From positions 1-25,534 of the IMG/VR virus record IMGVR_UViG_2778261167_000011: a DNA stretch of 25,534 nt; one strand, written 5' to 3'. Below the pieces are notes generated by a model. That model was not told where the DNA came from, made no database searches, and saw only the letters and a program-made list of their open reading frames with translations. Source of the stretch: a virus (taxonomy: Duplodnaviria > Heunggongvirae > Uroviricota > Caudoviricetes). A program made the translations under genes and the position numbers. This document shows positions 1-22,180 of the stretch, piece by piece; within the stretch, counting starts at the first letter, position 1; each line of letters begins with the position of its first letter.

Positions 1-144
1 AAAGCGGCTATTGGTCGTCTGAAAGGTGAGGAACTGGCGCAATATAATTTGTGGCTGGATTATCTGGACGCACTGGAGCTGGTCGATACTTCCAGTGCGC
101 CAGATATTGAATGGCCTACGCCTCCGGCAGTTCAGGCCAGATGA
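1..144 (+). CDS. Tail fibre assembly protein, C-terminal fragment (5' end outside window), inverted relative to G
   Basis: Frame 1 reads ...RLKGEELAQYNLWLDYLDALELVDTSSAPDIEWPTPPAVQAR then TGA at 142-144. This closely parallels the C-terminus of the minus-strand Tfa (LDYIDAVTVTDTSTAPDIIWPELPEA). The two genes converge and overlap at 116-144. Confidence 0.6.
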   Translation, partial: KAAIGRLKGEELAQYNLWLDYLDALELVDTSSAPDIEWPTPPAVQAR

Positions 145-718
145 TATCCGGCGCGGTGCTGGTATCTGTTACCGTCACCGCGTCAATGTAATCCAGCACG
201 GCGTTAAGTCGGGTTGTTTCTGCCTGCGTCAACTTCCGTCCGGCCTGCAATTTCAGTTGAATCAGACTAATGGAAGCCATTGCAGTATCAATCAGTGACT
301 GACGTTGTGCTTCTGCCGCGTCTACTGCGGCGCTATGCTGTGCCTCGGTATCCGTCACCCATTTCTCACCATCCCATTTATCGTATGGCGTTAACGGGGC
401 GATAGTGGTTGTATTATCAGGGTAATCACCCGGAACTGTGATTTCTTTTGATTCTCCTGTTTCGGTGCTAAAGACGATTTCACCGCGATGGTCTGGCACA
501 TATTCCCATGAGTTAAAATCTGCAGATCGGCAGATTGCATAACCAGCTTTGTATGCGCCTGGGGCATCTAAACAGGAATATGCCGGAATGCCGACACCAA
601 TAGCAAGATATTCAGTTGAAGCTGAAATATATTCCCGACTCATGACATCAAAGTTATAAACAGTAATTTCTCCTGCCATAGTGGCAATTAATTCACTGTT
701 TAATTCTGCGTTATTCAT
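116..718 (-). CDS. G: Tail fibre assembly chaperone (P2 gpG-like)
   Basis: 200-aa ORF immediately downstream of the tail fibre gene; ATG at 718 overlaps the H stop; Tfa-type C-terminal DTSxAPDIxWP motif. Confidence 0.85.
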   Translation of the reverse strand: MNNAELNSELIATMAGEITVYNFDVMSREYISASTEYLAIGVGIPAYSCLDAPGAYKAGYAICRSADFNSWEYVPDHRGEIVFSTETGESKEITVPGDYPDNTTTIAPLTPYDKWDGEKWVTDTEAQHSAAVDAAEAQRQSLIDTAMASISLIQLKLQAGRKLTQAETTRLNAVLDYIDAVTVTDTSTAPDIIWPELPEA

Positions 719-2259
719 TATGCAGCCCTCACAATATAGTTAAAAGCGACATTTCGTGGGCGTGTTTCATTCGCACCAGCAGGTTTAGTCGTTGCCGCAA
801 CAACACCACCCTCTGTAATAGCCGGGTTGGGAATTGGGTAATTATCGAAGTCAATGGCCGGAGACAGGGGCGTGATTTGTTTTAAAATCGTGGTGCCTGT
901 AAAACTTTCCAGAGTCTGGTCGTTAGTTCGTGAAGTCCAGATTCCCCAATAGTGGTTATGACTGACAATCGCACCGTCCTGAAGCGTTAATAATCCCCTT
1001 CCGTTATCCACTCCACGTCCGTCATCCCAGCCACGAATAAACTCACCGCGTAAATCAGGCAATTTATTTGTCGGGTAAGCCTTTGCCAGTTCCGGGTATT
1101 CTTCAGCAGAAAAAGCCGCACCGTTGCATTTCAGCCAGCCTGTCGGCGGAGTGGCTGAAGGCCACGGAACAGGGACACCAACAGGTAATGCAGAGCCTTC
1201 TCCCAAACCAAGGTATGCGAGAAGACCAGCTACATCCTTTCCACTCAAATTGGTAAGCGTATTGTCCAGCGGTTGTTTACCTGCCAGCGCATTAAGCATT
1301 GTCGTGGCAAAGTTCGGATCATTCCCCAGTGCCGCCGCCAGTTCGTTCAGTGTATCCAGTACAGCAGGTGCAGAACCCACCATTCCTGCAATCGCCGATT
1401 TCACAAAAGCCGTAGTGGCAATCTGTGTATTGTTGACCGACTGCGCCGCCGTGGGGGCTGTTGGCGTTCCGGTGAGTGCCGGACTCGACAACGGTGCTTT
1501 TAGTGCCAGCGCATTGTTAATGGTGGTACTGAAATTCGGATCATTGTTAATGGCTGCGGCTATTTCTTTCAGCGTGTCCAGCGTGGCTGGCGCACCATTA
1601 ATAAGGGCCGTCAGTGCCGCCTGTACAAACGCAGTGGTCGCAACCTGCGTGGTATTATTCCCCGCCGCTGGCGTTGGCGCTTTGGGGGTTCCGGTAAATG
1701 TCGGGCTGGCTTTTGGCGCGTACTGTGAATGCGGGTCCGGTGCGGCAAGATGTTTTGCCATCTGATCATCCGCGTACACCTTCAGCTCCAGTGCCTTGTC
1801 ATCCACATACTTGCGGGTTGCCAGCACTACAGCAGGGTCGATTTTCAGGGTGATATTGTCCGTGCTGCTGGTAATCAGCACCATGCGCACGGTCTGAGTG
1901 CGCCCGCTACCTTCAGCCAGTTGCGGCTTATAGCTTTCCGGGCAGTTGCCCACGGCAATCAATGCCCCGGACTCATCAAACAAGCCCACTTCACGTATCC
2001 ACCAACCGCCCTCGTTTTCAGGGATCACCTGTTCGGCAATAATCTGGCTGCTGTTCTGCGGGTCGATATAAAGCATATTCAGCGCAGCCCGGCGTTTCTC
2101 ATTTACCAGTGCCGTCTGCTTTGCGTCCGGCGTTGGCAATACTCCACCGCCATCGCCGACCGCCATATGGGTAATTTTTAGCGGCACACCGAGCGCGGCG
2201 GCGCTGGCAAGTTTCGCCGCGCCAATATCCGTCAGCAGGGTATAAAATTTTGTGCTCAT
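718..2259 (-). CDS. H: Tail fibre protein (P2 gpH-like)
   Basis: 513-aa ORF with N-terminal P2 H-like region, internal Ala/Thr-rich repeats, and C-terminal WLKCNGAAFSAEEYPELAKAYP ... NVAFNYIVRAA typical of Mu S / P2 H-type fibres; start ATG overlaps the I stop (ATGA). Confidence 0.9.
   Translation of the reverse strand: MSTKFYTLLTDIGAAKLASAAALGVPLKITHMAVGDGGGVLPTPDAKQTALVNEKRRAALNMLYIDPQNSSQIIAEQVIPENEGGWWIREVGLFDESGALIAVGNCPESYKPQLAEGSGRTQTVRMVLITSSTDNITLKIDPAVVLATRKYVDDKALELKVYADDQMAKHLAAPDPHSQYAPKASPTFTGTPKAPTPAAGNNTTQVATTAFVQAALTALINGAPATLDTLKEIAAAINNDPNFSTTINNALALKAPLSSPALTGTPTAPTAAQSVNNTQIATTAFVKSAIAGMVGSAPAVLDTLNELAAALGNDPNFATTMLNALAGKQPLDNTLTNLSGKDVAGLLAYLGLGEGSALPVGVPVPWPSATPPTGWLKCNGAAFSAEEYPELAKAYPTNKLPDLRGEFIRGWDDGRGVDNGRGLLTLQDGAIVSHNHYWGIWTSRTNDQTLESFTGTTILKQITPLSPAIDFDNYPIPNPAITEGGVVAATTKPAGANETRPRNVAFNYIVRAA
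1272..1707 (-). repeat. Tandem duplicated ~72-aa module inside the tail fibre gene
   Basis: Two consecutive protein segments align: ...TGTPKAPTPAAGNNTTQVATTAFVQAALTALINGAPATLDTLKEIAAAINNDPNFSTTINNALALKAPL and ...TGTPTAPTAAQSVNNTQIATTAFVKSAIAGMVGSAPAVLDTLNELAAALGNDPNFATTMLNALAGKQPL. The DNA is visibly repeated but diverged. Confidence 0.6.
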
Positions 2260-2861
2260 GGATTCACTCTCATTGTGTCAATAACATGGACCGCCCCGCC
2301 TTCATGCGCGGTGCCACCGGAAATAATCGTTTCGTTGATATACGGATAGATCGTGATTTCTTCGCCAAGATAGCTGGCGGCTCCCACCCAATGCGGGCCG
2401 CTGGTCTGCAGATTGATGGACATGCCGATCATGTGGCGGCTACATGGTTTGGCATCGCTTATCAGTCGCTCAAGTTCCAGATAGGTATCTTCAGTGATGC
2501 CCTGGTCCTGCACGCCGATATCCAGGCGAAACGTGCCCGGTGTTTCTCCGGTCTGCCACCACTCAATAATGCGGATCAGGAATCCGAACGGTTCCACCAC
2601 CCGCCGCACGGCACTGGTGGTTCCTTTATGCTGATGAATATAAAAAGCATCCTTCACTACCTGGCGTTTGACGCTTTCTGTCCAGCCCTCGTCCCAGCGA
2701 TCCACAGAGAACGCCCAGGCGAGATAAGGCAGGAAGCTGACCGGACAGGTAGCCGGATTCCACAAGTCACGCAGCGGCACCTGCAAATCAGAAATCCCGC
2801 TACAGGTTTGCGCCAGTCGGCGCTCCAGTGAAGTTGAACCCGGTGGCAGCAGACTATTCAT
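2256..2861 (-). CDS. I: Baseplate assembly protein (P2 gpI-like)
   Basis: 201-aa ORF between J and H with ATG at 2861 and stop overlapping the H start; position and size match P2 gpI. Confidence 0.85.
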   Translation of the reverse strand: MNSLLPPGSTSLERRLAQTCSGISDLQVPLRDLWNPATCPVSFLPYLAWAFSVDRWDEGWTESVKRQVVKDAFYIHQHKGTTSAVRRVVEPFGFLIRIIEWWQTGETPGTFRLDIGVQDQGITEDTYLELERLISDAKPCSRHMIGMSINLQTSGPHWVGAASYLGEEITIYPYINETIISGGTAHEGGAVHVIDTMRVNP

Positions 2862-3762
2862 CCGTTCCTCCGTTGGTTACGCTCCACTGCGTACATGATG
2901 CCGCCTGTGTTTTGTTCAGGACCACATCCGCCAGCGGAGAAGCCAGTTCCACACGTTGAACACCCTCAACATGCAGAGCAGCAAAGATGGCGCTACGGCG
3001 AATATCCCGACCAAGCCTCGTCTGGCTGGCAATGTACTTCTGCAGACTGGCTTTTGCCGCTGCCATTACCGGCTCTGCTTCCGGTCCCGGATAGAGAAAA
3101 ATGGTGGCTTCCACGCGATACGGGATGATTTCTGCGCTGCGAACCGTAAGACGGTCAGCCACCGGGCGGACGTTCTCACTGTTCAGAGCTTTTTCCACCA
3201 CGTCCAGCAGGTCTTTTTCTGCAGTTCCATCGCCTTCGCGGCTAAGGACAGTCAGCACCACCTCTGCAGGTGCCGGGCTGGTTGCACTGGCATCCGCCAC
3301 CCGACCGTCGGCGCTTCGGGCATGAAATTCATAAGCTGCAGTTGGCCCCGCAACAGAAAGCCCTTCAAAGGCTGCAGGCACACGCAGGCGCAACGCTTCA
3401 TCGCTTTCCATCACAGCTGCAACGGGCGGCACAGCATCATTATCAGCAGGCGTCACCGTCAGGCGTGTCACGTTGTAGTTGGCAGCGAGCTGGTCAAGAT
3501 CGCCGCCCATCGCGTAAGCCACCATCACCGCCTGCGCGGCTTCGTTAATACGCTGGCGCAGAAGCAACTCACGGTAAGCGTTCTCCTGCAACAATTTAGT
3601 GGCGGGTTCAGATTCCAGTTCCAGCGTGCGGATCACTGCTTCCTGCTCATCTTTCGGATGAAGCGCCACAAATTCTGCCTTGCGTTCGGCAAGCAGCGTC
3701 TCAAAGTCCGGCACATCCACAATCTGCGGTGCAGGCAACTGCGAAAGGTCAATCACTGCCAT
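2854..3762 (-). CDS. J: Baseplate assembly protein J (gp6-like wedge)
   Basis: Start placed at ATG 3762 (MAVIDLSQLPAP...) preceded by AGGAG at 7-nt spacing; overlaps the W stop by 14 bp. The track ORF extends to 3801 with a non-ATG start. Confidence 0.9.
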   Translation of the reverse strand: MAVIDLSQLPAPQIVDVPDFETLLAERKAEFVALHPKDEQEAVIRTLELESEPATKLLQENAYRELLLRQRINEAAQAVMVAYAMGGDLDQLAANYNVTRLTVTPADNDAVPPVAAVMESDEALRLRVPAAFEGLSVAGPTAAYEFHARSADGRVADASATSPAPAEVVLTVLSREGDGTAEKDLLDVVEKALNSENVRPVADRLTVRSAEIIPYRVEATIFLYPGPEAEPVMAAAKASLQKYIASQTRLGRDIRRSAIFAALHVEGVQRVELASPLADVVLNKTQAASCTQWSVTNGGTDE

Positions 3763-4108
3763 TCTCTGCTCCTGTTGATACGGAAAGGGACACAGGCACA
3801 CCGTTATTCCGCCGCCCGGTCAGCTCCACCACCATTGAACCGTCAAAATTGCTGTTGATGGTGATGGAATCCAGCGTCAACCGTGGCTCCCAGCGACTCA
3901 GCGCCACATACACTGCCGACATGACCTGCAGGCGTAATGCCGGATTTTGTGGCTGATCTATCAGTGCCGACAGCAGGGAACCATATTCCCGGCGGGCAAT
4001 ACGGCTACCCTGTGGTGTCAGCAGAATGTCCCGCACCGACTGGCGCAGATGATCAATATCAGTAATGACTTTGCCGCTGGTATTGTTCATCCCGCTATAA
4101 AGCGTCAT
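3749..4108 (-). CDS. W: Baseplate wedge protein (P2 gpW / T4 gp25-like)
   Basis: 119-aa ORF; ATG at 4108 overlaps the V stop (ATGA); size and position match GPW/gp25 family. Confidence 0.9.
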   Translation of the reverse strand: MTLYSGMNNTSGKVITDIDHLRQSVRDILLTPQGSRIARREYGSLLSALIDQPQNPALRLQVMSAVYVALSRWEPRLTLDSITINSNFDGSMVVELTGRRNNGVPVSLSVSTGAENGSD

Positions 4109-4683
4109 ACCGGGCCTCCGGTTGTATCGCCGCCTTTCAGGACGCCAGTATGCTGATGCGCATCAACCACGATCCCGTTAGAACTCATCGCTCCGCCGCC
4201 CTGGGTAACGCCACCATTGATCACCACTTCGCTGTTAATGCGCGTGCGGTCAGCCTCCAGTACAAACTCACTGGTTTTCATGGTGATGTTGTCAGCAGCC
4301 TCAATGACCATTGATTTGATGCCCCTGACATACCAGCGCCCGGTGGCGGGTTCGTATTCAAACCAGCCACCGTCAGGATGTTCTGTCACGCAGGCGTCCG
4401 CCGACGTCGACGGTGGTGCGAACTGATTCGAATAGACAGCGGGCAGCGCAAAGGCGGTTTCCAGATTGCCGCCCAGACTCAGCAGCACCACCTGCTCACC
4501 TTCCGATGGTCGCCACCATGTACGGGCATTCCCGGCACGCAGCGTCAGCCAGCTGATCCAGTTGGTTTCAAGCTCGCCCGTTTTCACCCGGCAAAGCCAG
4601 TTTTCCCTGTCCACTTCGGTGACTACCCCTGTGCGGATCAGGTTGGTGATAAGGCGCATGATTTCGGTTAATTGTGCGTTCAT
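4105..4683 (-). CDS. V: Baseplate hub/spike protein (P2 gpV-like)
   Basis: 192-aa ORF that is first gene after a 68-bp intergenic gap containing a dyad; synteny with P2 V. An alternative start at Met9 (4659) is possible. Confidence 0.85.
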   Translation of the reverse strand: MNAQLTEIMRLITNLIRTGVVTEVDRENWLCRVKTGELETNWISWLTLRAGNARTWWRPSEGEQVVLLSLGGNLETAFALPAVYSNQFAPPSTSADACVTEHPDGGWFEYEPATGRWYVRGIKSMVIEAADNITMKTSEFVLEADRTRINSEVVINGGVTQGGGAMSSNGIVVDAHQHTGVLKGGDTTGGPV

Positions 4684-4728
4684 AGGGAAAGGTTGCCATC
4701 AGGGGAAGAAAGGCGGCAGTGCTGCAAC

Positions 4729-4748
4729 TTGTATCAGTGCTGATACAA
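4729..4748. promoter_or_regulatory. Perfect dyad TTGTATCAG-TG-CTGATACAA (TGT-N12-ACA) upstream of the V operon; candidate late-activator (Ogr/B-type) site
   Basis: 9-bp perfect inverted arms in the only sizeable gap of the tail operon. P2/186 late promoters carry a TGT-N12-ACA activator site. Confidence 0.45.
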
Positions 4749-4751
4749 AGA

Positions 4752-5198
4752 TCACCCCGCCAGCCATTGCAGAATCATGTCGCGGGTCATTGCCTCAACA
4801 TCATCATTTACACCCAGCAGGCGGCGCTCTGCGTAACGGACCTCCGGTCCTTTGCGACTGACGCGATCACGCAGGCCGTAATGGTGAACACGGGCAATAC
4901 GCTGCACCTTGCCTTCAAACTGTACGCTGGCAGAGTCGGCGCTGGCGGCAGTTTTCAGGTATTTTGTGGTGCGCAACTTTGCAAACATCTGACGTTTGAT
5001 GCGGCCTTTTTTGCTGCGTGCTGTTACCCTGCGCGGCTCATAGCTGCTGCCATCTGGATTGCGCTGCATCCTGATATTCTGCTGCTGTGTCCGGCGCAGT
5101 TCCTGCGCCAGCTGGCGCATCATGCGGCTTCTCGTGGCTGGTTCCAGATTCGCCAGCAAGGCACTCAGCCAGTCGTCCACCTTCTGCAGTTCAGCCAC
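4752..5198 (-). CDS. S: Tail completion / virion morphogenesis protein (P2 gpS-like)
   Basis: 148-aa ORF between R and V; GTG start at 5198 overlapping the R stop; synteny. Confidence 0.85.
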   Translation of the reverse strand: MAELQKVDDWLSALLANLEPATRSRMMRQLAQELRRTQQQNIRMQRNPDGSSYEPRRVTARSKKGRIKRQMFAKLRTTKYLKTAASADSASVQFEGKVQRIARVHHYGLRDRVSRKGPEVRYAERRLLGVNDDVEAMTRDMILQWLAG

Positions 5199-5625
5199 GT
5201 TTCACCGTCCACATTTCTTCAGGTTCATCGGGTTCTGCTACAGCTTCAACGCTCGACACACTGCCGTCAGTACTGACCAGCACACGTTCCGTCAATTGCA
5301 GGTTAAGGCTGATATCACAGACATCGTTGCGCAAAATATCCACCTCAAAGGTGAATAGCTTTTCCCGTAACGCCGGGTTATTGATGGCATCGGGCTGGTT
5401 ATCCCGAAGCCACAGTAAAACCGGGGCCATCAGCAGATTCTGGTCGCCGCTGAAATCCTCTATCACCACGTTCAGGGTATAGCGGTACTCCCATGACATG
5501 GAGCTGGCCCCCGTGGCAACCAGCGAACCGTTATCCACAAACAGATGCAGTTTGTCCGGGTTATTGCGGACATAAGGCACCGCTTTATTGAGGGCGTGGC
5601 GCAGGGATTGTGGTTTGTTCACTGT
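5191..5625 (-). CDS. R: Tail completion protein (P2 gpR-like)
   Basis: Start placed at GTG 5625 (MNKPQSLRHAL...) preceded by AGGAG at 7-nt spacing. The track ORF starts at a TTG at 5643 with an in-frame stop just upstream. Confidence 0.8.
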   Translation of the reverse strand, partial: TVNKPQSLRHALNKAVPYVRNNPDKLHLFVDNGSLVATGASSMSWEYRYTLNVVIEDFSGDQNLLMAPVLLWLRDNQPDAINNPALREKLFTFEVDILRNDVCDISLNLQLTERVLVSTDGSVSSVEAVAEPDEPEEMWTVKRG

Positions 5626-5875
5626 TTCGCTCCTGACACGCAATAATCATGTCCACTTTGTCTGCACAGACCGCCCAGGCGGCCTCCGTTTCATCCAGCA
5701 ACGCGTTCAGGCCACCGTTAGTGCGCGGCGCTGCCTGTCCCAGCCGACACGGCGTCACTCGCGGACAACCACTGACGGTAAGCTGCACCTCCGGTGAGTG
5801 TGGGGCGTTCCCGCAGCCGGATAATGTCAGCAGGCAAAGGAGTATCAGCCCAGCGGCGTAAATCCTCGTTCTCAC
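5585..5875 (-). CDS. lysC: o-spanin (Rz1-like lipoprotein, P2 LysC-like), overlapping lysB in another frame
   Basis: GTG start at 5875 with GAGGA 8 nt upstream; N-terminus MRTRIYAAGLILLCLLTLSGCG has a signal peptide plus lipobox (LSGC); Pro-rich mature part; starts inside lysB and runs past its stop. Confidence 0.75.
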   Translation of the reverse strand: MRTRIYAAGLILLCLLTLSGCGNAPHSPEVQLTVSGCPRVTPCRLGQAAPRTNGGLNALLDETEAAWAVCADKVDMIIACQERNSEQTTIPAPRPQ

Positions 5876-6146
5876 GTTTCAGTTCCTCAATCCGGTGTTG
5901 TCGTTGTCTCAGCAGTACACTGGTCTGTTCTGCTTCGGCATAGAGCCGCGCCTGCTCCCGGTTATTGGTTTCAGTCAGAATGGACAGGCTGATAAGCTGG
6001 CTGTTGCTCTTTGCCAGTGCCTGGCTTTTGCTCCGAAGCTCGTCTGCCTGCGTGCTGATGGTCTGGCTGGCATCAGCCAGCCGCCACGTCTGCCAGCCCA
6101 GCGCCGCCAGTAATAACGCCAGCACAACCAGCAGCAACCGGTTCAT
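5718..6146 (-). CDS. lysB: i-spanin (Rz-like, P2 LysB-like)
   Basis: 142 aa; N-terminal TM segment (LLLVVLALLLAALGW) followed by coiled-coil-like sequence; ATG overlaps the lysA stop. Confidence 0.8.
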   Translation of the reverse strand: MNRLLLVVLALLLAALGWQTWRLADASQTISTQADELRSKSQALAKSNSQLISLSILTETNNREQARLYAEAEQTSVLLRQRQHRIEELKRENEDLRRWADTPLPADIIRLRERPTLTGGAAYRQWLSASDAVSAGTGSAAH

Positions 6147-6520
6147 GCTGCTACCTGTTGCGCAATCTGATTACGGATCATCCAGAAGGCAATAACGGTC
6201 AGCAGATAAAAGACCAGGGTAATAGCCCACCCCGTCCAGGCGAAACTTACGACAATCAGCAATCGCATCACCCAGCTGATAAATACGTTTTCTTTTCGGG
6301 TAATGGTCTTTAGCAAAGATGCCCTCAACTCCTGCCAGAGCGGGCCGTTCTTAATTAACGCAGCCAGTGCTACCGGAATTACCGCCCATGTCAGCAGACA
6401 GGCTACCCAGACACCGGACGCTGCCAGTACCGGAAAAATCCCCTGCGGATACACCATTGCTGCGATCAACAGCGCCATCCATAACATCAGAAACAGCCCG
6501 CTGATTACTTTCTTTTTCAT
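6143..6520 (-). CDS. lysA: Lysis-timing membrane protein (P2 LysA-like)
   Basis: Start placed at ATG 6520 (MKKKVISGLFLMLWMALLIAAMV...) with GGGAG 9 nt upstream; several TM segments. The track ORF extends to 6592 with a GTG start. Confidence 0.7.
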   Translation of the reverse strand: MKKKVISGLFLMLWMALLIAAMVYPQGIFPVLAASGVWVACLLTWAVIPVALAALIKNGPLWQELRASLLKTITRKENVFISWVMRLLIVVSFAWTGWAITLVFYLLTVIAFWMIRNQIAQQVAA

Positions 6521-6521
6521 T

Positions 6522-7034
6522 TCAGTTTGCTCCCTGTAAGCACCAGGCCATCTCCCGCGCACGGCGGTTATCCAGCCCCTGATTAAAAACACCTTTCACA
6601 TAAACCCAGCGCGGCAACTGTCGGCACGCATCCGCCCAGCGCCGCTGATTGAGCAATTTCACCAGTGTGGAACTGCAGGCATTGCCCGTTCCCACGTTGA
6701 AGGCAAACGACACCGCAGCGTCATACACCTTCTGCGGCGGCTGTTGCTTCACACACCTTTCCAGCGCCCGCTCCACACGCAGCACGTTGGAGATCAGCCC
6801 TTCTGCTGCCTGTCGCTCCGTAATGGTTTTGCCGGGAATGACGCCCGACGTATTACCAATGCCGTCGGTCCAGACACCCGCGCTGCACTGATACGGCTGC
6901 AGACGACAACCTTCATAATCGGCAATCAGTTTCAGCCCTTCCACGGAGGTGTGAAGCTGCTGAAAACCCGGCAGCGTGGCAGCAATAGCCAGCACGGTCC
7001 CGACAAGGCAGCGTTTAACGATTGATGGATTCAT
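6522..7034 (-). CDS. K: Endolysin, GH24 T4-lysozyme-like (P2 gpK-like), possibly SAR-type
   Basis: EGLKLIADYEG...GVWTDGIGNT lysozyme catalytic region; N-terminal weakly hydrophobic Gly/Ala-rich stretch CLVGTVLAIAATLPGF. Confidence 0.9.
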   Translation of the reverse strand: MNPSIVKRCLVGTVLAIAATLPGFQQLHTSVEGLKLIADYEGCRLQPYQCSAGVWTDGIGNTSGVIPGKTITERQAAEGLISNVLRVERALERCVKQQPPQKVYDAAVSFAFNVGTGNACSSTLVKLLNQRRWADACRQLPRWVYVKGVFNQGLDNRRAREMAWCLQGAN

Positions 7035-7230
7035 AGTCCTCCCGCGAGATCTGCCCGTCGCGCAGAAGCTGGTAGGCTTTGTGTTTGTAGTACCAGTTGA
7101 TAGCCAGCATCAGCACACCAATCATCAGGCCGCCCAGCGTTGAGGCATCCTTGATGGACAAATCGCCCAGCCAGGCCAGCACGACGGCGATGCAATACGT
7201 GATAAAGGCGCTGATTCGCTCAAGCGTCAT
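7015..7230 (-). CDS. Y: Holin (P2 gpY-like)
   Basis: 71 aa with two hydrophobic TM segments and a charged C-terminus; directly upstream of the endolysin. Confidence 0.8.
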   Translation of the reverse strand: MTLERISAFITYCIAVVLAWLGDLSIKDASTLGGLMIGVLMLAINWYYKHKAYQLLRDGQISREDYESINR

Positions 7231-7233
7231 AAT

Positions 7234-7437
7234 TCAGTCCCATAGCTGGACAGTCTGCACGGTGGTGGTTGTCGGTATGTCCGGCAGCTCCACCTGCAGC
7301 CCGTGAGGTAAAAAGGGGCCGTATTCGGCAAGCCCCGGATTTGCCTTCAGTACCTGCTCCGTGACACCCTGCGTGCGCCCGTAATGACGCCAGCAAAGCG
7401 CGTCCACCGTGTCATACTGATACGCACGCACTTTCAT
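7234..7437 (-). CDS. X: Tail protein X (P2 gpX-like)
   Basis: 67-aa ORF at the P2 X position; ATG overlaps the L stop. Confidence 0.85.
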   Translation of the reverse strand: MKVRAYQYDTVDALCWRHYGRTQGVTEQVLKANPGLAEYGPFLPHGLQVELPDIPTTTTVQTVQLWD

Positions 7438-7901
7438 CAGATAAGCTCCACTGTGCAGTGCGGCGCATCCTGCACCCGGCTGATGGCCCAGCGGGCGTCA
7501 CGCCACAAATCACCGCTTGCTTCCGCCAGTTCCTCGCCCCGCTTCACACCGGATGCCGTGGCGTCATAGTCCTGATAACGCTCGTTGAGCATGGCGCGTG
7601 CCCAGCAGTAAACCGCGTTGAAATAATGCTGAATGCGCTCACTTTTGCCGTCCAGCTGTTCCGCCGGAACCTCAGCCAGCGACGCATACCCCAGCATCTG
7701 CTGACGTCTGCGAAACTCATACAGCTCTGCGTTGACCTCCGAAATTGCCGACAGCGCAACCTGCTTTAAACGCGGCTGCGTCACCGTGCCGTCAGTGCGC
7801 ATGACACTGCGAAACTCCGACAGGTCCACATCAGGCCAGAACGGCGTATTCCTGATGATTTCCGCCTGTTCCGGTGCCTGTTCTGGCGCAACAAACTTCA
7901 T
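7437..7901 (-). CDS. L: Head completion/stabilisation protein (P2 gpL-like)
   Basis: Start placed at ATG 7901 (MKFVAPEQ...) with AGGAG RBS. The track ORF extends to 7964. Confidence 0.85.
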   Translation of the reverse strand: MKFVAPEQAPEQAEIIRNTPFWPDVDLSEFRSVMRTDGTVTQPRLKQVALSAISEVNAELYEFRRRQQMLGYASLAEVPAEQLDGKSERIQHYFNAVYCWARAMLNERYQDYDATASGVKRGEELAEASGDLWRDARWAISRVQDAPHCTVELI

Positions 7902-7996
7902 GCTGCTTTCTCCTGAAATAGAGGGCGGTGGACGGGATTTTGATGTGGCTATGCCTTTCGCCACCCCGTGCCGCCCGTGCGCGGGGGCACGTTCTG

Positions 7997-8647
7997 TCAG
8001 CGGCTGTCATTGCGCAGTCTGCGCTCCAGCTGCTGTTTGTCTTTTTTCACGCCACAGCGGGGATCGAGCTGTAACGCATGGTTGAGATGATTAAGGGCGG
8101 AAGCCGGATTGCTTTCACTCAGGACAGCGCCAATCGCTTTATGCAGACGCGCCCGTGACTGGTCCGGCATATCCAGACCGTCTGTCAGCTCCAGCGTCTG
8201 CAGCAACAGATCGGCATCAAAGCCGGTAGCGGCAAGCATTGCGCTCTGCGCTGCATCTGCCATTTCCTCTGCCAGCACGGTCTGCACGTTGCGGTTACCC
8301 AGAGGCATCACCCAGCCATGACGCAGGGCATGACGCCCGATCTCCAGCGCCCCGGCATAATCTCCGGCATCAATGCGCCACAGCATCACGTACATCAGCA
8401 CGTCATCCTGTTGAGCGCCTCCGGCAGCCAGGACGCCCTCCGCCCAGGCGGCATATTTCGGCAGCAGCTCCACCTTTATTTCCGCTTTTTTCACCGTGGA
8501 CTGAACGCCCTTGAGACGGCGGCGGTCTTCCGCCAGCTGCAGCAGCATCAGGTCATAGCCCGACGCGTGGCGAACACTGCCGCCCTCACGGGCGGCCTGT
8601 TCAGCCTGAACGCGCAGGCGATGCTGCCGTGCGGGACTCAGGCTCAT
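7997..8647 (-). CDS. M: Terminase small (endonuclease) subunit (P2 gpM-like)
   Basis: 216-aa ORF between capsid N and L; synteny with P2 M. Confidence 0.85.
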   Translation of the reverse strand: MSLSPARQHRLRVQAEQAAREGGSVRHASGYDLMLLQLAEDRRRLKGVQSTVKKAEIKVELLPKYAAWAEGVLAAGGAQQDDVLMYVMLWRIDAGDYAGALEIGRHALRHGWVMPLGNRNVQTVLAEEMADAAQSAMLAATGFDADLLLQTLELTDGLDMPDQSRARLHKAIGAVLSESNPASALNHLNHALQLDPRCGVKKDKQQLERRLRNDSR

Positions 8648-8650
8648 GGT

Positions 8651-9709
8651 TTACGCTCCGGCTTCTGCTGCGGCGGCGCTGAAATCACCAATCTGGATGT
8701 TTTCCACCAGTGCGGCGCAGCGGTAGTCCTCAACCACATAGGCTTCATTAACGGATTCAAAGTTTTCAATCCGGTCACGTTTCGGGTTGTCGATAACTGA
8801 ACGGCGGCGGGTGTCTTCCTGCCAGTAGATGGACAAGTTATCCAGACGGGTGATCAGCAGTGCATTCGGCGGGAAGAACGGCGCACGCACGGCCTGCAGG
8901 CCACCCATGCGTTTCTGACTGATGATCATATCGGCAGCGAGTTTTTCACTGTTTTCCTGCTCTTTGTTGACCAGTGGGAAATACTTGTCAGACAACAGCT
9001 CACGACCGCAAATCACCACCAGATCGTCATCGTCCTGGTAGACCACGTCGATAAGCTCATTGACGGCATCCATCACCACGGCGTCCAGGTTGGCATATTC
9101 GCCACCTTTACCGACTTTCACCGCGCCCGGTGTGGTTTCACCGCCTGTGGTGGTGCTGCCCATGACGTGATCCGGTGCATCCTCACGGATTTTCTGCAGC
9201 CAGCCTTTGTTCACATCCTGCAGCAGCGGGTTTTCACTACGGTTGGAGGTTTTCGCACGCTTCACGCCGTTAAAGCCGATCATGATGCGGTCCAGTGCCT
9301 GACGTTTCACGATGGCGTCACGGATACGCACCTGGAAATCCTGAAATTTCGCCCACAAGTCCAGCTTCGCGTAGGTCAGCACCGTGTCAAAGTTGGTCTG
9401 CTCGCATTTGTATTCCACATCGACCATCAGCGTCGGATCGACAGGTTCACGCTCTTTCGCGGTGGTATCAGTGGTTCCGGCAATGGTGCTGCCAACACCC
9501 AACCCCAGCAGCTGACCGGACTGCTCAGTCACTGGCGTGACGTTAATCAGCGTCAGGAAAGCGGCGGACTGCTGGATCTGGTCTTCCAGCGTCTGCTGTA
9601 CAGACGGCTCCACGGTGAACTTGCTGGACAGTTCTTCAACTGCCACACCGTTCAGACGCGCCAGCTGCTGCAGGTAAGCGTTAAAAGCAAAGCGGGTATT
9701 CTTCTTCAT
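8651..9709 (-). CDS. N: Major capsid protein (P2 gpN-like)
   Basis: 352-aa ORF of the size and position of P2 N, immediately downstream of the scaffold gene. Confidence 0.93.
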   Translation of the reverse strand: MKKNTRFAFNAYLQQLARLNGVAVEELSSKFTVEPSVQQTLEDQIQQSAAFLTLINVTPVTEQSGQLLGLGVGSTIAGTTDTTAKEREPVDPTLMVDVEYKCEQTNFDTVLTYAKLDLWAKFQDFQVRIRDAIVKRQALDRIMIGFNGVKRAKTSNRSENPLLQDVNKGWLQKIREDAPDHVMGSTTTGGETTPGAVKVGKGGEYANLDAVVMDAVNELIDVVYQDDDDLVVICGRELLSDKYFPLVNKEQENSEKLAADMIISQKRMGGLQAVRAPFFPPNALLITRLDNLSIYWQEDTRRRSVIDNPKRDRIENFESVNEAYVVEDYRCAALVENIQIGDFSAAAAEAGA

Positions 9710-9725
9710 CGGGTTTTGTGCTCCA

Positions 9726-10559
9726 TCAGCAATTGGTCAGAGTGTCAGCGGGGGCGTTACCGCCTGTTGCACGCTGGCGGTAGTCCTGGCGGCTGTCTTC
9801 ATGACTCAGCTTGTCCACCAGTTCGTTAAAGGCGGTTTGCTGTGCCTGCAGGGCAGTCTCCAGCTCAGACAGGCGTTCTTCCTGCTCAGACAGGGATTTT
9901 TCGGTGCGTGCGCTCAGGTTTTGCTGCTCAGTGGCGACCAGCTCCACGGCCTTATGCACATCAGAGAACCGGGCGTCATCGGACTGCTCTTTTTTGGTAA
10001 ACAGCGCCGTGACGCGGGCAAACAGGGACGGTTTGTCGTCCTGGATTTCTTCCAGTTCGATCACCGTTTCCTCTGCAGCGGTAAAGAGATTGGCAGGATT
10101 CTGCTTGCGGTTTGCCAGCGGGTTATGGGCTGCACTGGCGCTGAATGTCAGCATTTCCGTACCCAGACTGGCAGGGTCATCAGTGGCAGCCAGGCCGACC
10201 AGGTAGGCTTTGCCCGTATCAGCGAACTTCGGGCTGACTTCCATAGAGGTGAATAATTTCTGGCCTTTTTTCACCAGTTCCACCAGGGACTCCGTTGGCT
10301 CAACGTCGGCATACAGCGCCATCTTGCCTGCCAGCGGACCTTCCGTGATTTCTTCAGCAAACAGCGCCGTCACCTTGCCGTAGCGGTTAAAGGTGCTGTC
10401 CGGCAGATAAGACTTGATGTGCTCAAGGTTAATCAGCGCGGTATACACCGCCGGGTTGTAGCTGGCTGCCATCTGTTCCAGCCATTCACGCTGGATTTCG
10501 CGTCCGTCGGTGGTGGCACCTTCCACCCCGATGCGAAAACGCTTTGCTTTCACTGTCAT
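9726..10559 (-). CDS. O: Capsid scaffolding protein (P2 gpO-like)
   Basis: 277-aa ORF with an acidic coiled-coil C-terminal half; divergent from terminase P. Confidence 0.9.
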   Translation of the reverse strand: MTVKAKRFRIGVEGATTDGREIQREWLEQMAASYNPAVYTALINLEHIKSYLPDSTFNRYGKVTALFAEEITEGPLAGKMALYADVEPTESLVELVKKGQKLFTSMEVSPKFADTGKAYLVGLAATDDPASLGTEMLTFSASAAHNPLANRKQNPANLFTAAEETVIELEEIQDDKPSLFARVTALFTKKEQSDDARFSDVHKAVELVATEQQNLSARTEKSLSEQEERLSELETALQAQQTAFNELVDKLSHEDSRQDYRQRATGGNAPADTLTNC

Positions 10560-10634
10560 GAGCCGTGCTCCGTTAGAAAAAACTTACTGGAGCCTTATGG
10601 TTGCGGTGATGGGGGCAGTGAAACAATGCGCGGT

Positions 10635-10657
10635 ATTTGTACCGACAACCACACAAA
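10635..10657. promoter_or_regulatory. Dyad TTTGT-N12-ACAAA in the divergent O/P intergenic region; candidate late-activator site
   Basis: TGT (10638-10640) and ACA (10653-10655) separated by 12 nt with 5-bp symmetric arms, lying between the divergent head operons. Confidence 0.35.
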
Positions 10658-10701
10658 CCGCAGGCGGGGAAAGCCTTCATTCAAGGCTGTAGGTTTGTGC
10701 C

Positions 10702-12468
10702 ATGAACACCACACTGACACCCGCAGATCTCGATCCCCGTCGGCAGGCCATGCTGCTGTACTTTCAGGGATACCGCGTAGCCCGCATTGCTGAAATGCTG
10801 GGCGAGAAAGTTGCAACCGTTCACAGCTGGAAAAAACGCGACAAGTGGGGTGACTATGGGCCGCTGGATCAGATGCAGCTCACCACCGCCGCACGCTACT
10901 GCCAGCTCATTATGAAGGAGCACAAAGAAGGGAAAGATTTCAAAGAGATTGACCTGCTGGCGCGCCAGTCGGAGCGCCATGCGCGGATCGGCAAGTTTAA
11001 CAATGGCGGCAACGAAGCCGACTTAAACCCTAACGTCGCCAACCGCAACAAAGGCCCGCGCCGTCAGCCGGAAAAGAACGTTTTCACCGATGAACAGATT
11101 GAGAAGCTGGAAGAAATCTTCCATTCCTCCATGTTCAACTACCAGCGCCACTGGTGGGAAGCCGGAAAAACCAACCGCATCCGCAACCTGCTGAAGTCAC
11201 GCCAGATCGGCGCGACCTTCTATTTTGCCCGTGAAGCCCTGATTGACGCCCTGCTGACCGGGCGTAACCAGATTTTCCTTTCCGCCAGCAAGGCACAGGC
11301 CCACGTCTTTAAGCAGTACATCATCGACTTCGCCAAAGAAGTGGAGGTGGAGCTGAAAGGCGATCCGATGGTGCTTCCTAACGGGGCCACGCTGTACTTC
11401 CTCGGCACCAATGCCCGCACGGCCCAGAGTTACCACGGCAACCTGTATCTGGATGAATATTTCTGGATACCGAAATTCCAGGAGCTGCGCAAAGTGGCTT
11501 CCGGTATGGCTATTCACAAGAAATGGCGACAGACCTATTTTTCCACGCCATCCAGTCTGACACACAGTGCTTATCCGTTCTGGTCCGGTGCGCTGTTCAA
11601 CCGTGGGCGCAACAGAGCCGATAAGGTGGACATCGACCTGTCCCACAGCAATCTGGCCCCCGGCCTGCTGTGCGCAGACGGGCAATACCGCCAGATAGTC
11701 ACCGTGGAAGATGCGGTGCGAGGCGGCTGTAACCTGTTCGACCTTGACCAGTTGCGCATGGAGTACAGCCCTGACGAATACCAGAACTTGCTGATGTGCG
11801 AGTTCGTGGACGATCTCGCGTCCGTGTTCCCGCTCAGCGAATTGCAGGCGTGCATGGTGGACAGCTGGGAAGTCTGGACCGACTTTCATGCACTGGCCCT
11901 GCGCCCGTTTGGCTGGCGCGAAGTGTGGATCGGTTATGACCCGGCAAAAGGTACGCAGAACGGCGACAGCGCCGGATGCGTGGTGGTGGCACCGCCAGCC
12001 GTGCCAGGCGGTAAGTTCCGCATTCTTGAGCGTCACCAGTGGCGCGGAATGGACTTTCGCGCCCAGGCTGACGCCATCAAAAAACTGACCGAACAGTACA
12101 ACGTGACCTATATCGGCATCGACTCAACCGGCGTTGGTCACGGGGTTTACGAGAACGTGAAAGCGTTTTTTCCTGCCGTCCGGGAGTTTGTCTACAACCC
12201 CAACGTTAAAAACGCCCTGGTACTCAAGGCCTACGACATTATCAGCCACCGCCGTCTTGAGTTTGACGCCGGGCACACCGACATTGCGCAGTCATTCATG
12301 GCAATCCGTCGCGCCACCACCGCCAGCGGCAACCGCCCGACCTATGAAGCCAGCCGCAGCGAAGAAGCCAGCCATGCCGATCTGGCCTGGGCAACAATGC
12401 ACGCACTGTTTAACGAACCACTGCAGGGCGAGTCCGCCAATACCAGCAATATTGTGGAGATTTTTTGA
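10702..12468 (+). CDS. P: Terminase large (ATPase) subunit (P2 gpP-like)
   Basis: 588-aa ORF divergent from O and followed by the portal gene with overlapping stop/start (TGATG). Confidence 0.93.
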   Translation: MNTTLTPADLDPRRQAMLLYFQGYRVARIAEMLGEKVATVHSWKKRDKWGDYGPLDQMQLTTAARYCQLIMKEHKEGKDFKEIDLLARQSERHARIGKFNNGGNEADLNPNVANRNKGPRRQPEKNVFTDEQIEKLEEIFHSSMFNYQRHWWEAGKTNRIRNLLKSRQIGATFYFAREALIDALLTGRNQIFLSASKAQAHVFKQYIIDFAKEVEVELKGDPMVLPNGATLYFLGTNARTAQSYHGNLYLDEYFWIPKFQELRKVASGMAIHKKWRQTYFSTPSSLTHSAYPFWSGALFNRGRNRADKVDIDLSHSNLAPGLLCADGQYRQIVTVEDAVRGGCNLFDLDQLRMEYSPDEYQNLLMCEFVDDLASVFPLSELQACMVDSWEVWTDFHALALRPFGWREVWIGYDPAKGTQNGDSAGCVVVAPPAVPGGKFRILERHQWRGMDFRAQADAIKKLTEQYNVTYIGIDSTGVGHGVYENVKAFFPAVREFVYNPNVKNALVLKAYDIISHRRLEFDAGHTDIAQSFMAIRRATTASGNRPTYEASRSEEASHADLAWATMHALFNEPLQGESANTSNIVEIF

Positions 12469-13493
12469 TGGGAAAGAGTAAGAAGAACCGCGCTGCGGCG
12501 ACGAAACAGATCCAGCATAAAAACCAGACTTCAGCCGAAGCATTCAGCTTCGGTGATCCCGTTCCTGTTCTGGACCGCCGCGAACTGCTGGACTATGTGG
12601 AATGCGTACAGATGGACCGTTGGTATGAGCCACCAGTGAGTTTCGACGGCCTGGCGCGAACCTTCCGCGCCGCCGTACACCACAGCTCACCGATTGCAGT
12701 AAAGTGCAACATTCTGACCAGCACCTATATCCCTCACCCGTTGCTCAGCCAGCAGGCTTTTTCACGTTTTGTGCAGGACTATCTGGTATTTGGTAATGCC
12801 TACCTGGAGAAACGCACGAACCGCTTCGGTGAAGTTATCGCCCTTGAACCTGCCCTGGCAAAATACACTCGACGCGGATTAGACCTGGATACCTACTGGT
12901 TTGTGCAATACGGTATGGCAACCCAGCCGTATCAGTTCACGAAAGGCAGCATCTTTCATCTGATGGAACCGGATATTAATCAGGAGATCTACGGCCTGCC
13001 TGGCTATCTTTCTGCTATTCCATCCGCTCTGCTCAACGAGTCCGCCACGCTGTTCCGCCGGAAGTATTACATTAACGGCAGTCATGCAGGCTTCATCATG
13101 TACATGACCGATGCCGCGCAAAACCAGGAGGATGTGAACAACCTCCGCAACGCAATGAAAAGCGCCAAAGGACCGGGTAACTTCCGCAACCTGTTTATGT
13201 ACTCGCCTAACGGCAAAAAGGATGGGCTTCAGATCATTCCTCTGTCAGAAGTCGCGGCGAAGGATGAGTTTCTGAATATCAAGAACGTGAGCCGGGACGA
13301 CATGATGGCGGCGCACCGCGTACCGCCGCAAATGATGGGGATTATGCCTAGCAATGTCGGGGGGTTTGGGGATGTAGAGAAAGCTAGTAAGGTATTTGTG
13401 CGGAATGAGCTTTTACCTTTGCAAAAATTGATGCAAGCGCTTAATTGTTGGCTGGATGAAAATATAATTACATTTAATAAATATATTTTGTAG
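12468..13493 (+). CDS. Q: Portal protein (P2 gpQ-like)
   Basis: Start placed at ATG 12468 overlapping the P stop (track ORF starts at a TTG at 12465); size and position match P2 Q. Confidence 0.93.
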   Translation: MGKSKKNRAAATKQIQHKNQTSAEAFSFGDPVPVLDRRELLDYVECVQMDRWYEPPVSFDGLARTFRAAVHHSSPIAVKCNILTSTYIPHPLLSQQAFSRFVQDYLVFGNAYLEKRTNRFGEVIALEPALAKYTRRGLDLDTYWFVQYGMATQPYQFTKGSIFHLMEPDINQEIYGLPGYLSAIPSALLNESATLFRRKYYINGSHAGFIMYMTDAAQNQEDVNNLRNAMKSAKGPGNFRNLFMYSPNGKKDGLQIIPLSEVAAKDEFLNIKNVSRDDMMAAHRVPPQMMGIMPSNVGGFGDVEKASKVFVRNELLPLQKLMQALNCWLDENIITFNKYIL

Positions 13494-13533: not shown

Positions 13534-15315
13534 TCATTTAAAACGTGTTGCAATATCTGCTGCTTCGATAACTGTTGCTTTTACGGTATTATCGCCAGCA
13601 CGATAATAAATATCCCCATCATAACTAGAATAAGATGCTAGAAGTGGAATTGTAATAACTATAACTCCATAACCATAAAAGTCATTATAGTCAATCAAAC
13701 TCACCACTTGTGATTTAAGAGGCTCACTCAAAGCAGATTTTTTCAACTCATCGCAAAAACGTCTATAATATTCTTCCATTGATATGCCGAGTTTAATAGC
13801 TTCTCTTTTAACACCAACAACACTTCTCTCACCAACTACATGTGCATCTATATCATCAAGCTCTTTTACTCTACTTGTATCACTTGGTTTATCTGTTACA
13901 CCAAGCAATAACTTACCAACTACACCGTTCTTGTTACCTTTACCGATGTTAGCAATAGCACAAATTGTGGAGAATATTTTCTCATGAATGCCATCATCAA
14001 TAGTTCGCTCTCCGCCTAACATCAACAAACCCTGTTTCAGTTCATAATTTGCAAGCTCTATTTCAGATCTTCGTAAAATATCCTCAATATCCACCGTATT
14101 GTGAGAATTATAGATATGACTGCTATCGGCGCTATCAATAAAGTTATCTTTAATCAAGCCTATGATAGAATTAATATTCTTTCTTCTCTCTTCCCCACCA
14201 GTAGCAGATCTTTTAGTATCTAGTCGAGTGACTATATTATTAAGATTGTCTTTTACACCTTTATAATTATTAATCTTCTTATTTTCTTTAATGAGTAATT
14301 CATGAAAAGCAATAAATAACACAGCAAATATGGCTGGGAAAGCATTTGTAGTACGTTTAGTAAAGATTAAATCCCTGAGTTTAATTTCACCGTCACTATT
14401 ACATACTTTTGTTATTTCCTGGATGCAGAATTTAAACTCTTCTGCAAATTTTCCTTCACCATAAACATTAATAGCAGAGCTAATACGACTATACTCTTCA
14501 TCTTCATTATTATAAATCTGATCAAGCGCATCTTTGGAACGATCTATTAACTTACCTCCAACAATACAAGCTGCTATATCTGCAATGCATTGCTCATCCA
14601 TACTGTCACGAAGGTCTGTTGAACGTAAGATCCCATGTTTTACCCAAAATACTTCTTCCGACTGAATTTGGTAACCATGTTTAGTTAGTGGCAAATCAAT
14701 GCTAATAGACGGCATTTGCTCTAAAAGCAATATGTCGTCAGATACATCCCCCCTGATAGAACAGGCAATATCCCTAACCATATTTGAAAATTTATTTTGT
14801 ATACCAGCCTGGCGCCTTTCTTGATCACTAAGTCTATGCCCGTATGTATTAATTCTATCAAAAACATCATTTATTTCGTTCTCAGTCGCATTACGCATAA
14901 TGGACATTGCAAGAGAATAATCCAATAACTGAGTAACCTCACGCTGACTTAAAAGATTATCAGCTTTCACTGCAACAAACTTACCTTCATCCGCTCGATT
15001 TTTCGCTGTGGGAAAAGCGTCCAGATTAAAACGTTTTCCATCAAGTGATTCATATCCTGTTTCGATGAAAGACATTATTGCATGTAATCTTTGTAGGCCA
15101 TCAATTATTTCATATGTGCCAGGATCATTTTCCCTTTCCGCGAGAAGAACTGCAGGAATTGGATATTTTTTTTGAATGGATTCAATTAATTTTTGTTTCT
15201 CTATTGCAGTCCAAACTAATTTTCGTTGATAACGTCTATTAACAAATATCTTACCTTCAGTAAACCATGAATAAATAGTTTGTATAGAAGTTGTTTGCGG
15301 TAATAGTTCAGCCAT
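13534..15315 (-). CDS. DUF262 / ParB-like nuclease-domain protein, 593 aa, AT-rich cargo gene
   Basis: ATG at 15315 with AAGGA RBS; N-terminal YEIIDGLQRL (DGQxR-type) motif characteristic of DUF262 as in GmrSD/BrxU/SspE/DndB N-domains; C-terminal ~350 aa unassigned. Composition is much more AT-rich than the flanking phage genes. Confidence 0.8.
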   Translation of the reverse strand: MAELLPQTTSIQTIYSWFTEGKIFVNRRYQRKLVWTAIEKQKLIESIQKKYPIPAVLLAERENDPGTYEIIDGLQRLHAIMSFIETGYESLDGKRFNLDAFPTAKNRADEGKFVAVKADNLLSQREVTQLLDYSLAMSIMRNATENEINDVFDRINTYGHRLSDQERRQAGIQNKFSNMVRDIACSIRGDVSDDILLLEQMPSISIDLPLTKHGYQIQSEEVFWVKHGILRSTDLRDSMDEQCIADIAACIVGGKLIDRSKDALDQIYNNEDEEYSRISSAINVYGEGKFAEEFKFCIQEITKVCNSDGEIKLRDLIFTKRTTNAFPAIFAVLFIAFHELLIKENKKINNYKGVKDNLNNIVTRLDTKRSATGGEERRKNINSIIGLIKDNFIDSADSSHIYNSHNTVDIEDILRRSEIELANYELKQGLLMLGGERTIDDGIHEKIFSTICAIANIGKGNKNGVVGKLLLGVTDKPSDTSRVKELDDIDAHVVGERSVVGVKREAIKLGISMEEYYRRFCDELKKSALSEPLKSQVVSLIDYNDFYGYGVIVITIPLLASYSSYDGDIYYRAGDNTVKATVIEAADIATRFK

Positions 15316-15468: not shown

Positions 15469-15999
15469 TGCCCGCTTTATGTAGTAGTTTTCATGCACCT
15501 GCATGACATGAGCAAAAGCCCGCCAGTTCTGGCATGTCTTAGCCAAACCGATCCTCAAACGATCATGCGAACTCATGCAGCATAGACATGCATGACATGA
15601 AAATCGGTCAAACCTTGAAACCAGTCATAAATATGAGCCAGCTTAATACACACTAAATAGCTGCGTCTAATACTGCTACACCTGCCGTTTACTGACATGT
15701 GGCATGTCGCGTAAGGACAACATACTGTAGGCCAGATACAGCAGGATCAGGCGAAGAAAACGGCCCCACGCCTTACCCAGCAAGAGCCAAGGGCCAAGGG
15801 CTAACCGAAAGTGGAACACTATTCCGCGCAGTTATTTAGTGTCAGCTCTTTTGAGCTAAAATCAAGTTTCAACATGAGGGTCTGTGCAGGCTTTCTCATC
15901 CCGCTAATTTATACAGCACACCTATATATGGCTATGAGTTTGTCATGCCCGCTAATCCTGTTAGGATTAGCCTTGTTTTTTTACGATTGGGATAGGGAT

Positions 16000-21252: not shown

Positions 21253-21467
21253 GTTTGTTGGCGATACTGTTCAAGAGGTGATGTGCTTTTCCGCATCACT
21301 TCCTGAACCCGTTCCCCCCGAAAGAATGTCCCATCTCGCAACGTAAAATAGTAACTACCATCACCCGAAAGAGACGGATAACAACTTGCAAACTCGTCCT
21401 CATGAATTGAATACTTTTCGCCCTTATGGAAGAACTGGTAAAACACACCTTCTGTAGCTTGCGCCAT
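21243..21467 (-). CDS. Hypothetical early protein (74 aa; positional analogue of 186 fil/dhr-region genes)
   Basis: ATG at 21467 with AGGGG RBS; protein-like composition, unlike the alternative overlapping frame. Confidence 0.55.
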   Translation of the reverse strand: MAQATEGVFYQFFHKGEKYSIHEDEFASCYPSLSGDGSYYFTLRDGTFFRGERVQEVMRKSTSPLEQYRQQTYR

Positions 21468-21638
21468 GATTTCCCCTTTTTGGTTGTAGACAATTCATCC
21501 AGAAGCGCATTCTGAGTACGGCACAGGTGCCAGCGCTTGCCATCCTTCCCCATAATCCAGCCATGACCGCAGTGCATTGCCGGGCTTTGCCTCACCAATA
21601 GTGATGCAAATGAAGGTTCTTTCGTCAGCATAACCACC

Positions 21639-22148: not shown

Positions 22149-22180
22149 AGTCAGTTGCTCCGTGAAGTCTCAGAATGGAA

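Follow-up and report, generated by a model that had tools for sequence, protein, structure and literature searches.

Introduction

The closest described relatives of the locus analyzed here are invertible host-range segments in which inversion by a Din-family enzyme (Hin/Gin/Cin/Pin) swaps the C-terminal part of a tail-fiber gene. In the C-segment of phage P1 (Cin) and the G-segment of phage Mu (Gin), a constant fiber part, Sc, is combined with alternative parts, Sv and Sv′, that come with the convergent chaperone genes U and U′; the invertase is encoded just outside the segment, and the 26-bp crossover sites consist of 12-bp half-sites that end in AAACC. The P-segment of e14 in Escherichia coli K-12 (stfP-tfaP/tfaE-stfE, pinE) has a comparable order of fiber exon, tfa gene, convergent tfa gene, silent exon and invertase. 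Among P2-like prophages, Kutsukake et al. reportedly described in 2006 a Din-family invertase, Fin, beside the tail-fiber genes of the Salmonella Fels-2/SopE-phi elements. Sequencing has been used to measure phase variation in e14 and at two P2-prophage loci of enteropathogenic E. coli (EPEC) E2348/69, with additional confirmation by PCR for e14 (Goldberg et al., 2014; PMC4272514); one of the EPEC loci (NC_011601.1 2977580-2979467) was found to be 93% in the forward orientation (PMC4272514). More broadly, the Z/fun hotspot of P2-like phages is reported to contain a DNA invertase commonly, along with inversion of the genes next to it (bioRxiv 10.1101/2024.10.15.618418, a 2024 preprint).

Here we analyze a viral DNA stretch of 25,534 nucleotides (IMG/VR record IMGVR_UViG_2778261167_000011), referred to below as the window. 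A preliminary description, made from the letters and reading frames of the window, had read its left end as part of a Mu/P1/e14-type invertible host-range segment. The follow-up reported here bears that reading out, in that the alternative fiber exon, the invertase, the inverted crossover sites and both orientations are all present, and we put at roughly 90% the probability that the left end belongs to a two-state Din-type invertible host-range segment of a P2-family, 186-like prophage.

Results

The window holds a P2-family prophage with a 186-type early region

The prophage is read in the window from its tail-fiber end, with G, H, I, J, W, V and further late genes on the minus strand and with terminase, portal, replication gene A and a 186-type CII/Fil/CI/integrase region in the right half. 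Assignment to the P2 family was based on the Pfam families of genes called in the right half of the window and in a contig, L003, that extends the locus to the left (see below). The late genes follow the P2 order (Q P / O N M L X, lysis, R S V W J I H G ... FI FII E T U D), and the right half of the window contributes Phage_GPA, Phage_CP76 (CII), Phage_CI_repr, Phage_186_Fil and an integrase, such that P2 late-gene order, replication gene A and a 186-type CI/CII/Fil/Int early region occur together. Inspection of the immunity region (positions 21296-23094) shows genes of the 186 type (Fil, CII/CP76, and CI with both Phage_CI_repr and Phage_CI_C; the CI repressor gene lies at 22522-23094) rather than of the P2 C/Cox type, and the prophage is therefore 186-like in its early region. 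The integrase gene occupies positions 24482-25534.

Several genes of the window stand at known or apparent cargo positions. Two are found between portal gene Q and replication gene A, the position of the P2 'tin/old' hotspot: a minus-strand gene at 13534-15315 (593 aa; GmrSD_N, E=1.6e-22; PADLOC NsnA, E=8e-31) and a plus-strand gene at 15811-16806 (331 aa; DUF6694, with no PADLOC match). This pair is probably anti-phage defense cargo. A 418-aa open reading frame (23141-24397, plus strand) separates the CI repressor from the integrase; its similarity to HEPN_Swt1 is sub-threshold, at 20.6 bits where the cut-off is 27.5, and it matches the PADLOC candidate PDC-M34B weakly (E=4e-7). The CI-integrase position is the third hotspot of P2-like elements (bioRxiv 10.1101/2024.10.15.618418). 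At the junction of S and V, the window has only a 68-bp gap (4684-4751). The related prophage of strain ATCC 8739 (L002, 12810-14321) holds there a 1.5-kb P-loop ATPase gene of the Sll1717 family, and a stretch from strain WS3294A that includes only the V side (L008, 1-359) has a 'P-loop NTPase fold' gene just upstream of V, at the same position. The S-V junction is thus another cargo insertion point in this phage lineage.

Two tail-fiber-assembly genes converge at the left end

Frame translation of positions 1-144 on the plus strand shows that frame 1 is open and reads KAAIGRLKGEELAQYNLWLDYLDALELVDTSSAPDIEWPTPPAVQAR*, while both remaining frames contain stops. The open frame comprises the last 47 codons of a second tail-fiber-assembly gene, which we term tfa′, and its TGA stop (142-144). 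The 47-aa product matches the Pfam family Caudo_TAP (PF02413) with E=3.2e-13 over profile positions 90-131 of 131, and by this placement is the C-terminal end of a Tfa protein. On the minus strand, G (116-718) is an open reading frame for a 200-aa TfaE-type assembly protein (Caudo_TAP, E=1.7e-32), the homologue of which carries the name tfaE in RefSeq relatives and which is about 88% identical in nucleotide sequence to tfaE of e14. G is the chaperone of the fiber tip that is expressed in the current orientation, and tfa′ serves the alternative tip.

The full-length tfa′ gene, recovered from the sequence to the left (L003 12116-12535), encodes 139 aa and starts 276 bp outside the window. Comparison of its product with the C-terminus of G reveals 38% identity over 65 aa (E=2e-10). 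The two genes overlap by 29 bp (116-144), a stretch bounded by the stop codons of G (116-118, minus strand) and tfa′ (142-144, plus strand). All three proposals of the preliminary description for this region, namely that the first 144 bp encode the end of a second Tfa-like protein, that this end parallels the C-terminus of G, and that the two genes converge and overlap at 116-144, are therefore upheld. An overlap of the same 29 bp in length also joins tfaP and tfaE in e14 of E. coli K-12 and the corresponding genes of the EPEC E2348/69 locus, indicating that the overlap has been conserved as part of the module and did not arise by chance.

The sequence left of the window encodes an alternative fiber tip and a serine invertase

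Look-up of the exact H protein retrieved contig PDMU02000003.1 of assembly GCA_002631765.2 (L003), the reverse complement of which is 100% identical to window positions 1-12259, with zero mismatches or gaps (window x = 12260 - L003 x); L003 was accordingly taken to be the source of the window or an identical sibling. The window itself contains one of the two crossover sites, one full tfa gene (G) and part of the second tfa gene, whereas L003, identical over the 12,259 shared bases, supplies the sequence of the invertase, the partner site and the alternative exon. Leftward of the window, L003 continues with the rest of tfa′, an alternative exon (Hv′), a serine invertase gene and the sheath gene FI. 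Hv′ is a 133-aa open reading frame with a Gp53-like_C fiber-tip domain and no promoter of its own, and is separated from tfa′ by TAATAAATG. Both elements that had been predicted to lie beyond the left edge, a fiber C-terminal exon and an invertase, are accordingly found there.

The invertase gene (L003 12968-13534) specifies a 188-aa protein with Resolvase and HTH_7 domains on record; scored on the 188-aa homologue from a 98%-identical prophage (L001), these domains give E=2.8e-53 and E=6.3e-16, respectively. The motifs YVRVSTNDQ, which includes the catalytic serine, and DRLGRS are both present. The protein is 87% identical to PinE of e14 and 79% identical to Cin of P1, matches the solved Gin structures 3uj3 and 4m6f with E about 1e-92 (E=1.1e-92 for 3uj3), and recurs at 99.5% identity in Escherichia phage 500465-1, one of several described phages. 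It is hence, like the Din invertases, a small serine recombinase with an N-terminal catalytic serine and a C-terminal helix-turn-helix that is encoded next to the segment.

We also examined the part of the invertase gene that is homologous to the enhancer annotated in P1 (cin nucleotides 19-90). This region is identical to cin at 56 of 72 nucleotides and to pinE at 63 of 72. Synonymous changes within it, as compared with the rest of the gene, number 7/23 versus 41/92 against pinE, 9/19 versus 50/88 against cin and 14/22 versus 49/81 against gin; they are not clearly rarer in the region, and an enhancer signal could not be told apart from coding constraint. Inversion may depend on Fis and an enhancer.

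Three short-read contigs with an identical H gene (L004, L005 and L006) all end in the segment, inside the tfa genes, at positions equivalent to L003 12403, 11843 and about 11912, where window position 1 corresponds to L003 12259. The likely cause is that assemblies break at tfa sequences common to other prophages. We considered these ends as a sign of mixed orientation and rejected this idea, given that they miss the crossover sites and that shared tfa repeats explain them better.

Two inverted 26-bp sites bound the segment

The H-side crossover site lies at window positions 1198-1223 and reads TTCTCCCAAACCAAGGTATGCGAGAA, that is, TTCTCCCAAACC-AA-GGTATGCGAGAA, with the AA core at 1210-1211. 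It spans H codons 346-354 (AYLGLGEG), has a 12-2-12 layout with dyad symmetry at 10 of 12 half-site positions, and aligns with the sites of e14, the cix sites of P1 and the gix site of Mu. A 26-bp site inside H had been something to look for in the preliminary description, and this is where it was found. Its partner, TTCTCCCAAACC-AA-CGTTTAAGAAAA, is inverted and lies about 630-650 bp left of the window (L003 12887-12912). The two share TTCTCCCAAACCAA, which comprises one half-site and the central AA, and their central dinucleotides fall at L003 11049-11050 and 12899-12900. They thereby form a pair of inverted, imperfectly dyadic 26-bp sites with identical 2-bp cores, as is characteristic of the Din family.

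The top-listed inverted repeat around the fiber genes joins L003 11037-11063 with 12886-12912 and is also present in two 98%-identical prophages (L001 and L002). A family-core scan returned exactly one site in the window (1198-1223; 0 expected by chance) and exactly two, inverted with respect to each other, in the 21.5 kb of L003 (0.01 expected by chance). No partner site was found in the window, either among inverted repeats at positions 1-2400 or in a pattern scan along its full length, and a third, shufflon-like site was absent from the 21.5 kb of L003.

Reference sites were taken directly from the e14, P1 and Mu sequences, with both cix positions annotated in the P1 record. The e14 sites are TTCTCCCAAACCAAGGTTTTCGAGAG and TTCTCCCAAACCAACGTTTATGAAAA; P1 cixR is TTCTCTTAAACCAAGGTATTGGATAA, cixL is TTCTCTTAAACCAAGGTTTAGGATTG, and the Mu gix site is TTCCTGTAAACCGAGGTTTTGGATAA. 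The invertase-proximal site of the present locus is identical to the pinE-proximal site of e14 at 25 of 26 positions and to the site of the EPEC P2 locus at all 26. The other site shares the TTCTCCCAAACCAAGG half with its e14 counterpart, and differs by one base, at a half-site position that is variable across the family, from the counterpart in the prophage of strain 13TMH22 (see below).

A gix/hix-like half-site at positions 893-902, which had been noted earlier and already called unconvincing, did not hold up. It carries 2 mismatches and has neither dyad symmetry nor a partner nor a homology breakpoint. Matches to the gix half-site with 2 mismatches occur 4 times in the window against 1.5 expected, and 6 of 100 shuffled sequences reach 4, a level at which a single half-site match is attributable to chance.

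Inversion exchanges the fiber tip in frame

The tail-fiber gene H (718-2259, minus strand) encodes 513 aa and is divided by the crossover site into a constant N-terminal part, Hc (1211-2259; residues 1 to about 350), which lies outside the segment and carries a Phage_tail_fib domain at residues 1-150, and a variable C-terminal exon, Hv (718-1210; about residue 351 to 513), which lies inside it and carries a Collar domain at residues 361-408. The segment occupies window positions 1-1210 and extends to about 640 bp left of the window, for a total of about 1.85 kb. When L003 was inverted in silico between the central dinucleotides, the frame of H was kept and a 469-aa product, H′, was obtained without an intervening stop. 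The last ~118 residues of H′ form the Gp53-like tip, and tfa′ follows directly. An identical 469-aa fiber is annotated in genomes that have the flipped orientation. The site thus sits within the fiber reading frame and inversion at it swaps the C-terminal exon in frame, each exon being followed by its own Caudo_TAP gene (G or tfa′), with the two convergent. The genes H and G share a TAATG (716-720), an overlap that couples them. On the model of Mu and P1, each tip would be co-transcribed with its own chaperone from a fixed upstream late promoter.

Many phage records, among them Escherichia phage Cartapus, several Klebsiella phage records and CP019275.1, match the window at 96-99% from 1197/1198 to 3000, and lose homology exactly at the crossover site. 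This abrupt stop indicates that the site is also a module boundary at which different fiber tips are joined to the same constant part.

Both orientations occur among near-identical prophages

The preliminary description had called for a search for both orientations. A synthetic flipped junction (Hc-Hv′-tfa′, 800 nt) was used to query complete E. coli genomes and was found to be contiguous in 9 of them, with up to 99.6% identity, as compared with 32 that have the unflipped junction of the window. The annotated flipped genomes show the exact mirror arrangement and the 469-aa fiber. Among 5,426 complete E. coli genomes, 331 or more contain, in a single place, 80% or more of window positions 1-3000.

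Strain 13TMH22 contains both states in a single assembly. Alignment of its chromosomal prophage (L010, NZ_CP019256.1) with the 36,172-bp circular p13TMH22-1 (L009, NZ_CP019257.1) shows flanks that are 100% identical over 3,914 and 2,064 bp, separated by 1,855 bp that are inverted, with one mismatch; the two copies encode the same proteins. The colinear and the inverted alignments overlap in 15 bp, which correspond to the shared half-site and core. A repeat so short, beside a PinE orthologue, points to site-specific rather than homologous recombination. Apart from the inverted fiber segment, the 36-kb circular 'plasmid' and the chromosomal prophage are one and the same P2-like phage in the 7.8 kb that were compared, which suggests that p13TMH22-1 represents phage DNA, excised or replicating, that was caught by the assembly. 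The two orientations sought are hence both present, in separate genomes and within this one isolate.

The module compares most closely with the e14 P-segment and an EPEC P2 locus

The order of elements in the e14 P-segment is reproduced here, and G together with the start of Hv is 88-94% identical in DNA to tfaE/stfE. In contrast, e14 is a defective lambdoid element whereas the present prophage is a complete myovirus of the P2/186 type, and neither Hv′ nor the 5′ part of tfa′ is homologous in DNA to stfP/tfaP. Furthermore, the E-type tip is the one expressed in the window, whereas in K-12 MG1655 the stfE exon is silent and adjoins pinE. Taken at the level of sequence, the module is related to the e14 P-segment in a mosaic fashion.

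The EPEC locus at NC_011601.1 2977580-2979467 likewise consists of a fiber tip, a 200-aa tfa gene, a convergent tfa gene, a gp53-like exon, an invertase and the sheath gene, with 89-94% DNA identity in the region of the 5′ part of Hv and tfaE. That locus, however, is a truncated prophage remnant that has lost the constant part of the fiber, and DNA identity in the invertase gene drops to about 75%. The other P2 locus of EPEC differs in being a shufflon-like arrangement of three sites and four states, as opposed to the two sites found here. The P1 and Mu segments share the general plan and the site structure, but are larger (4.2 kb in P1 and 3 kb in Mu), have U and U′ genes that do not overlap, and carry fiber and chaperone sequences that are largely unrelated, on different phage backbones; in Mu, the core dinucleotide is GA instead of AA.

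Discussion

The locus is an ordinary, already documented kind of Din-family host-range switch, the mechanism and site family of which are documented, as is its presence in P2-like prophages. The segment lies between G and the sheath gene FI, at the Z/fun position. In the proposed mechanism, the invertase, encoded just outside it, would bind the two inverted 26-bp sites, one inside H (1198-1223) and the other in front of the promoterless alternative exon. The enzyme would cut both sites at the central AA and rejoin the ends after strand rotation, inverting about 1.85 kb; the promoter of the late operon would stay fixed, as would about 350 codons at the start of H. In the orientation of the window, Hc is fused to Hv, giving a 513-aa fiber with a Collar-type tip, and followed by the TfaE-like G; in the other, Hc continues in frame into Hv′, giving a 469-aa fiber with a Gp53-like_C tip, and is followed by tfa′. 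A population of lysogens would accordingly release particles of two receptor specificities. The segment is real and probably functional, and we infer that it inverts in the source strain of the window.

Two other accounts of the locus deserve weighing. The module could derive from an invertible segment that no longer inverts, owing to lost invertase expression or to a site defect, in which case only Hv and G would ever be expressed; the window orientation is indeed the commoner one in public assemblies of this allele pair (32 versus 9), and the EPEC homologue is strongly biased (93% forward). We nonetheless think it improbable that the segment is frozen, as the invertase reading frame is unbroken and retains every catalytic motif, the two sites are undamaged and have the same core, the silent exon and tfa′ can be read through in frame, and a 98.5%-identical prophage shows both orientations in the assembly of one isolate, 13TMH22. 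Alternatively, the convergent tfa pair might be no more than a scar of mosaic recombination between tail-fiber modules, with the differences in orientation stemming from homologous recombination or assembly error. Recombination has hotspots in tail-fiber regions, other phages lose homology at 1197/1198, and several short-read contigs (L004-L006) end within the segment, all of which would fit such an origin. At only 14-15 bp, however, the shared inverted repeat is shorter than RecA would need to invert the segment efficiently; the breakpoints fall exactly at a 26-bp Din-family site beside a PinE orthologue; the reading frame is kept on inversion; and the same architecture inverts experimentally in e14 and EPEC. 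These observations render a recombination or assembly origin highly implausible and argue instead for the Din-type invertible segment.

Cross-complementation among Din invertases is established in principle. Given that the invertase-proximal site is identical at 25 of 26 positions to that of e14 and at 26 of 26 to that of an EPEC prophage remnant, the invertase could conceivably act in trans, at pix-type sites elsewhere in its cell, a possibility that we rate as unlikely. Were it to do so, several resident prophages would have their tail-fiber states switched by invertases from a common pool; even then, this would extend a known mechanism rather than introduce a new one. Along similar lines, the conserved 29-bp overlap of the convergent tfa genes could conceivably provide antisense control of the silent chaperone gene.

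Recognition of the invertible segment accounts for the fragment of a second tfa gene at the start of the window and for the exact break of fiber homology between related phages at 1197/1198. It also explains why annotation pipelines call the silent exon a 'hypothetical' or 'gp53-like' protein. The orientation of the segment in any one assembly is arbitrary, and a lysate of this prophage or of its relatives should be expected to contain particles of both receptor specificities.
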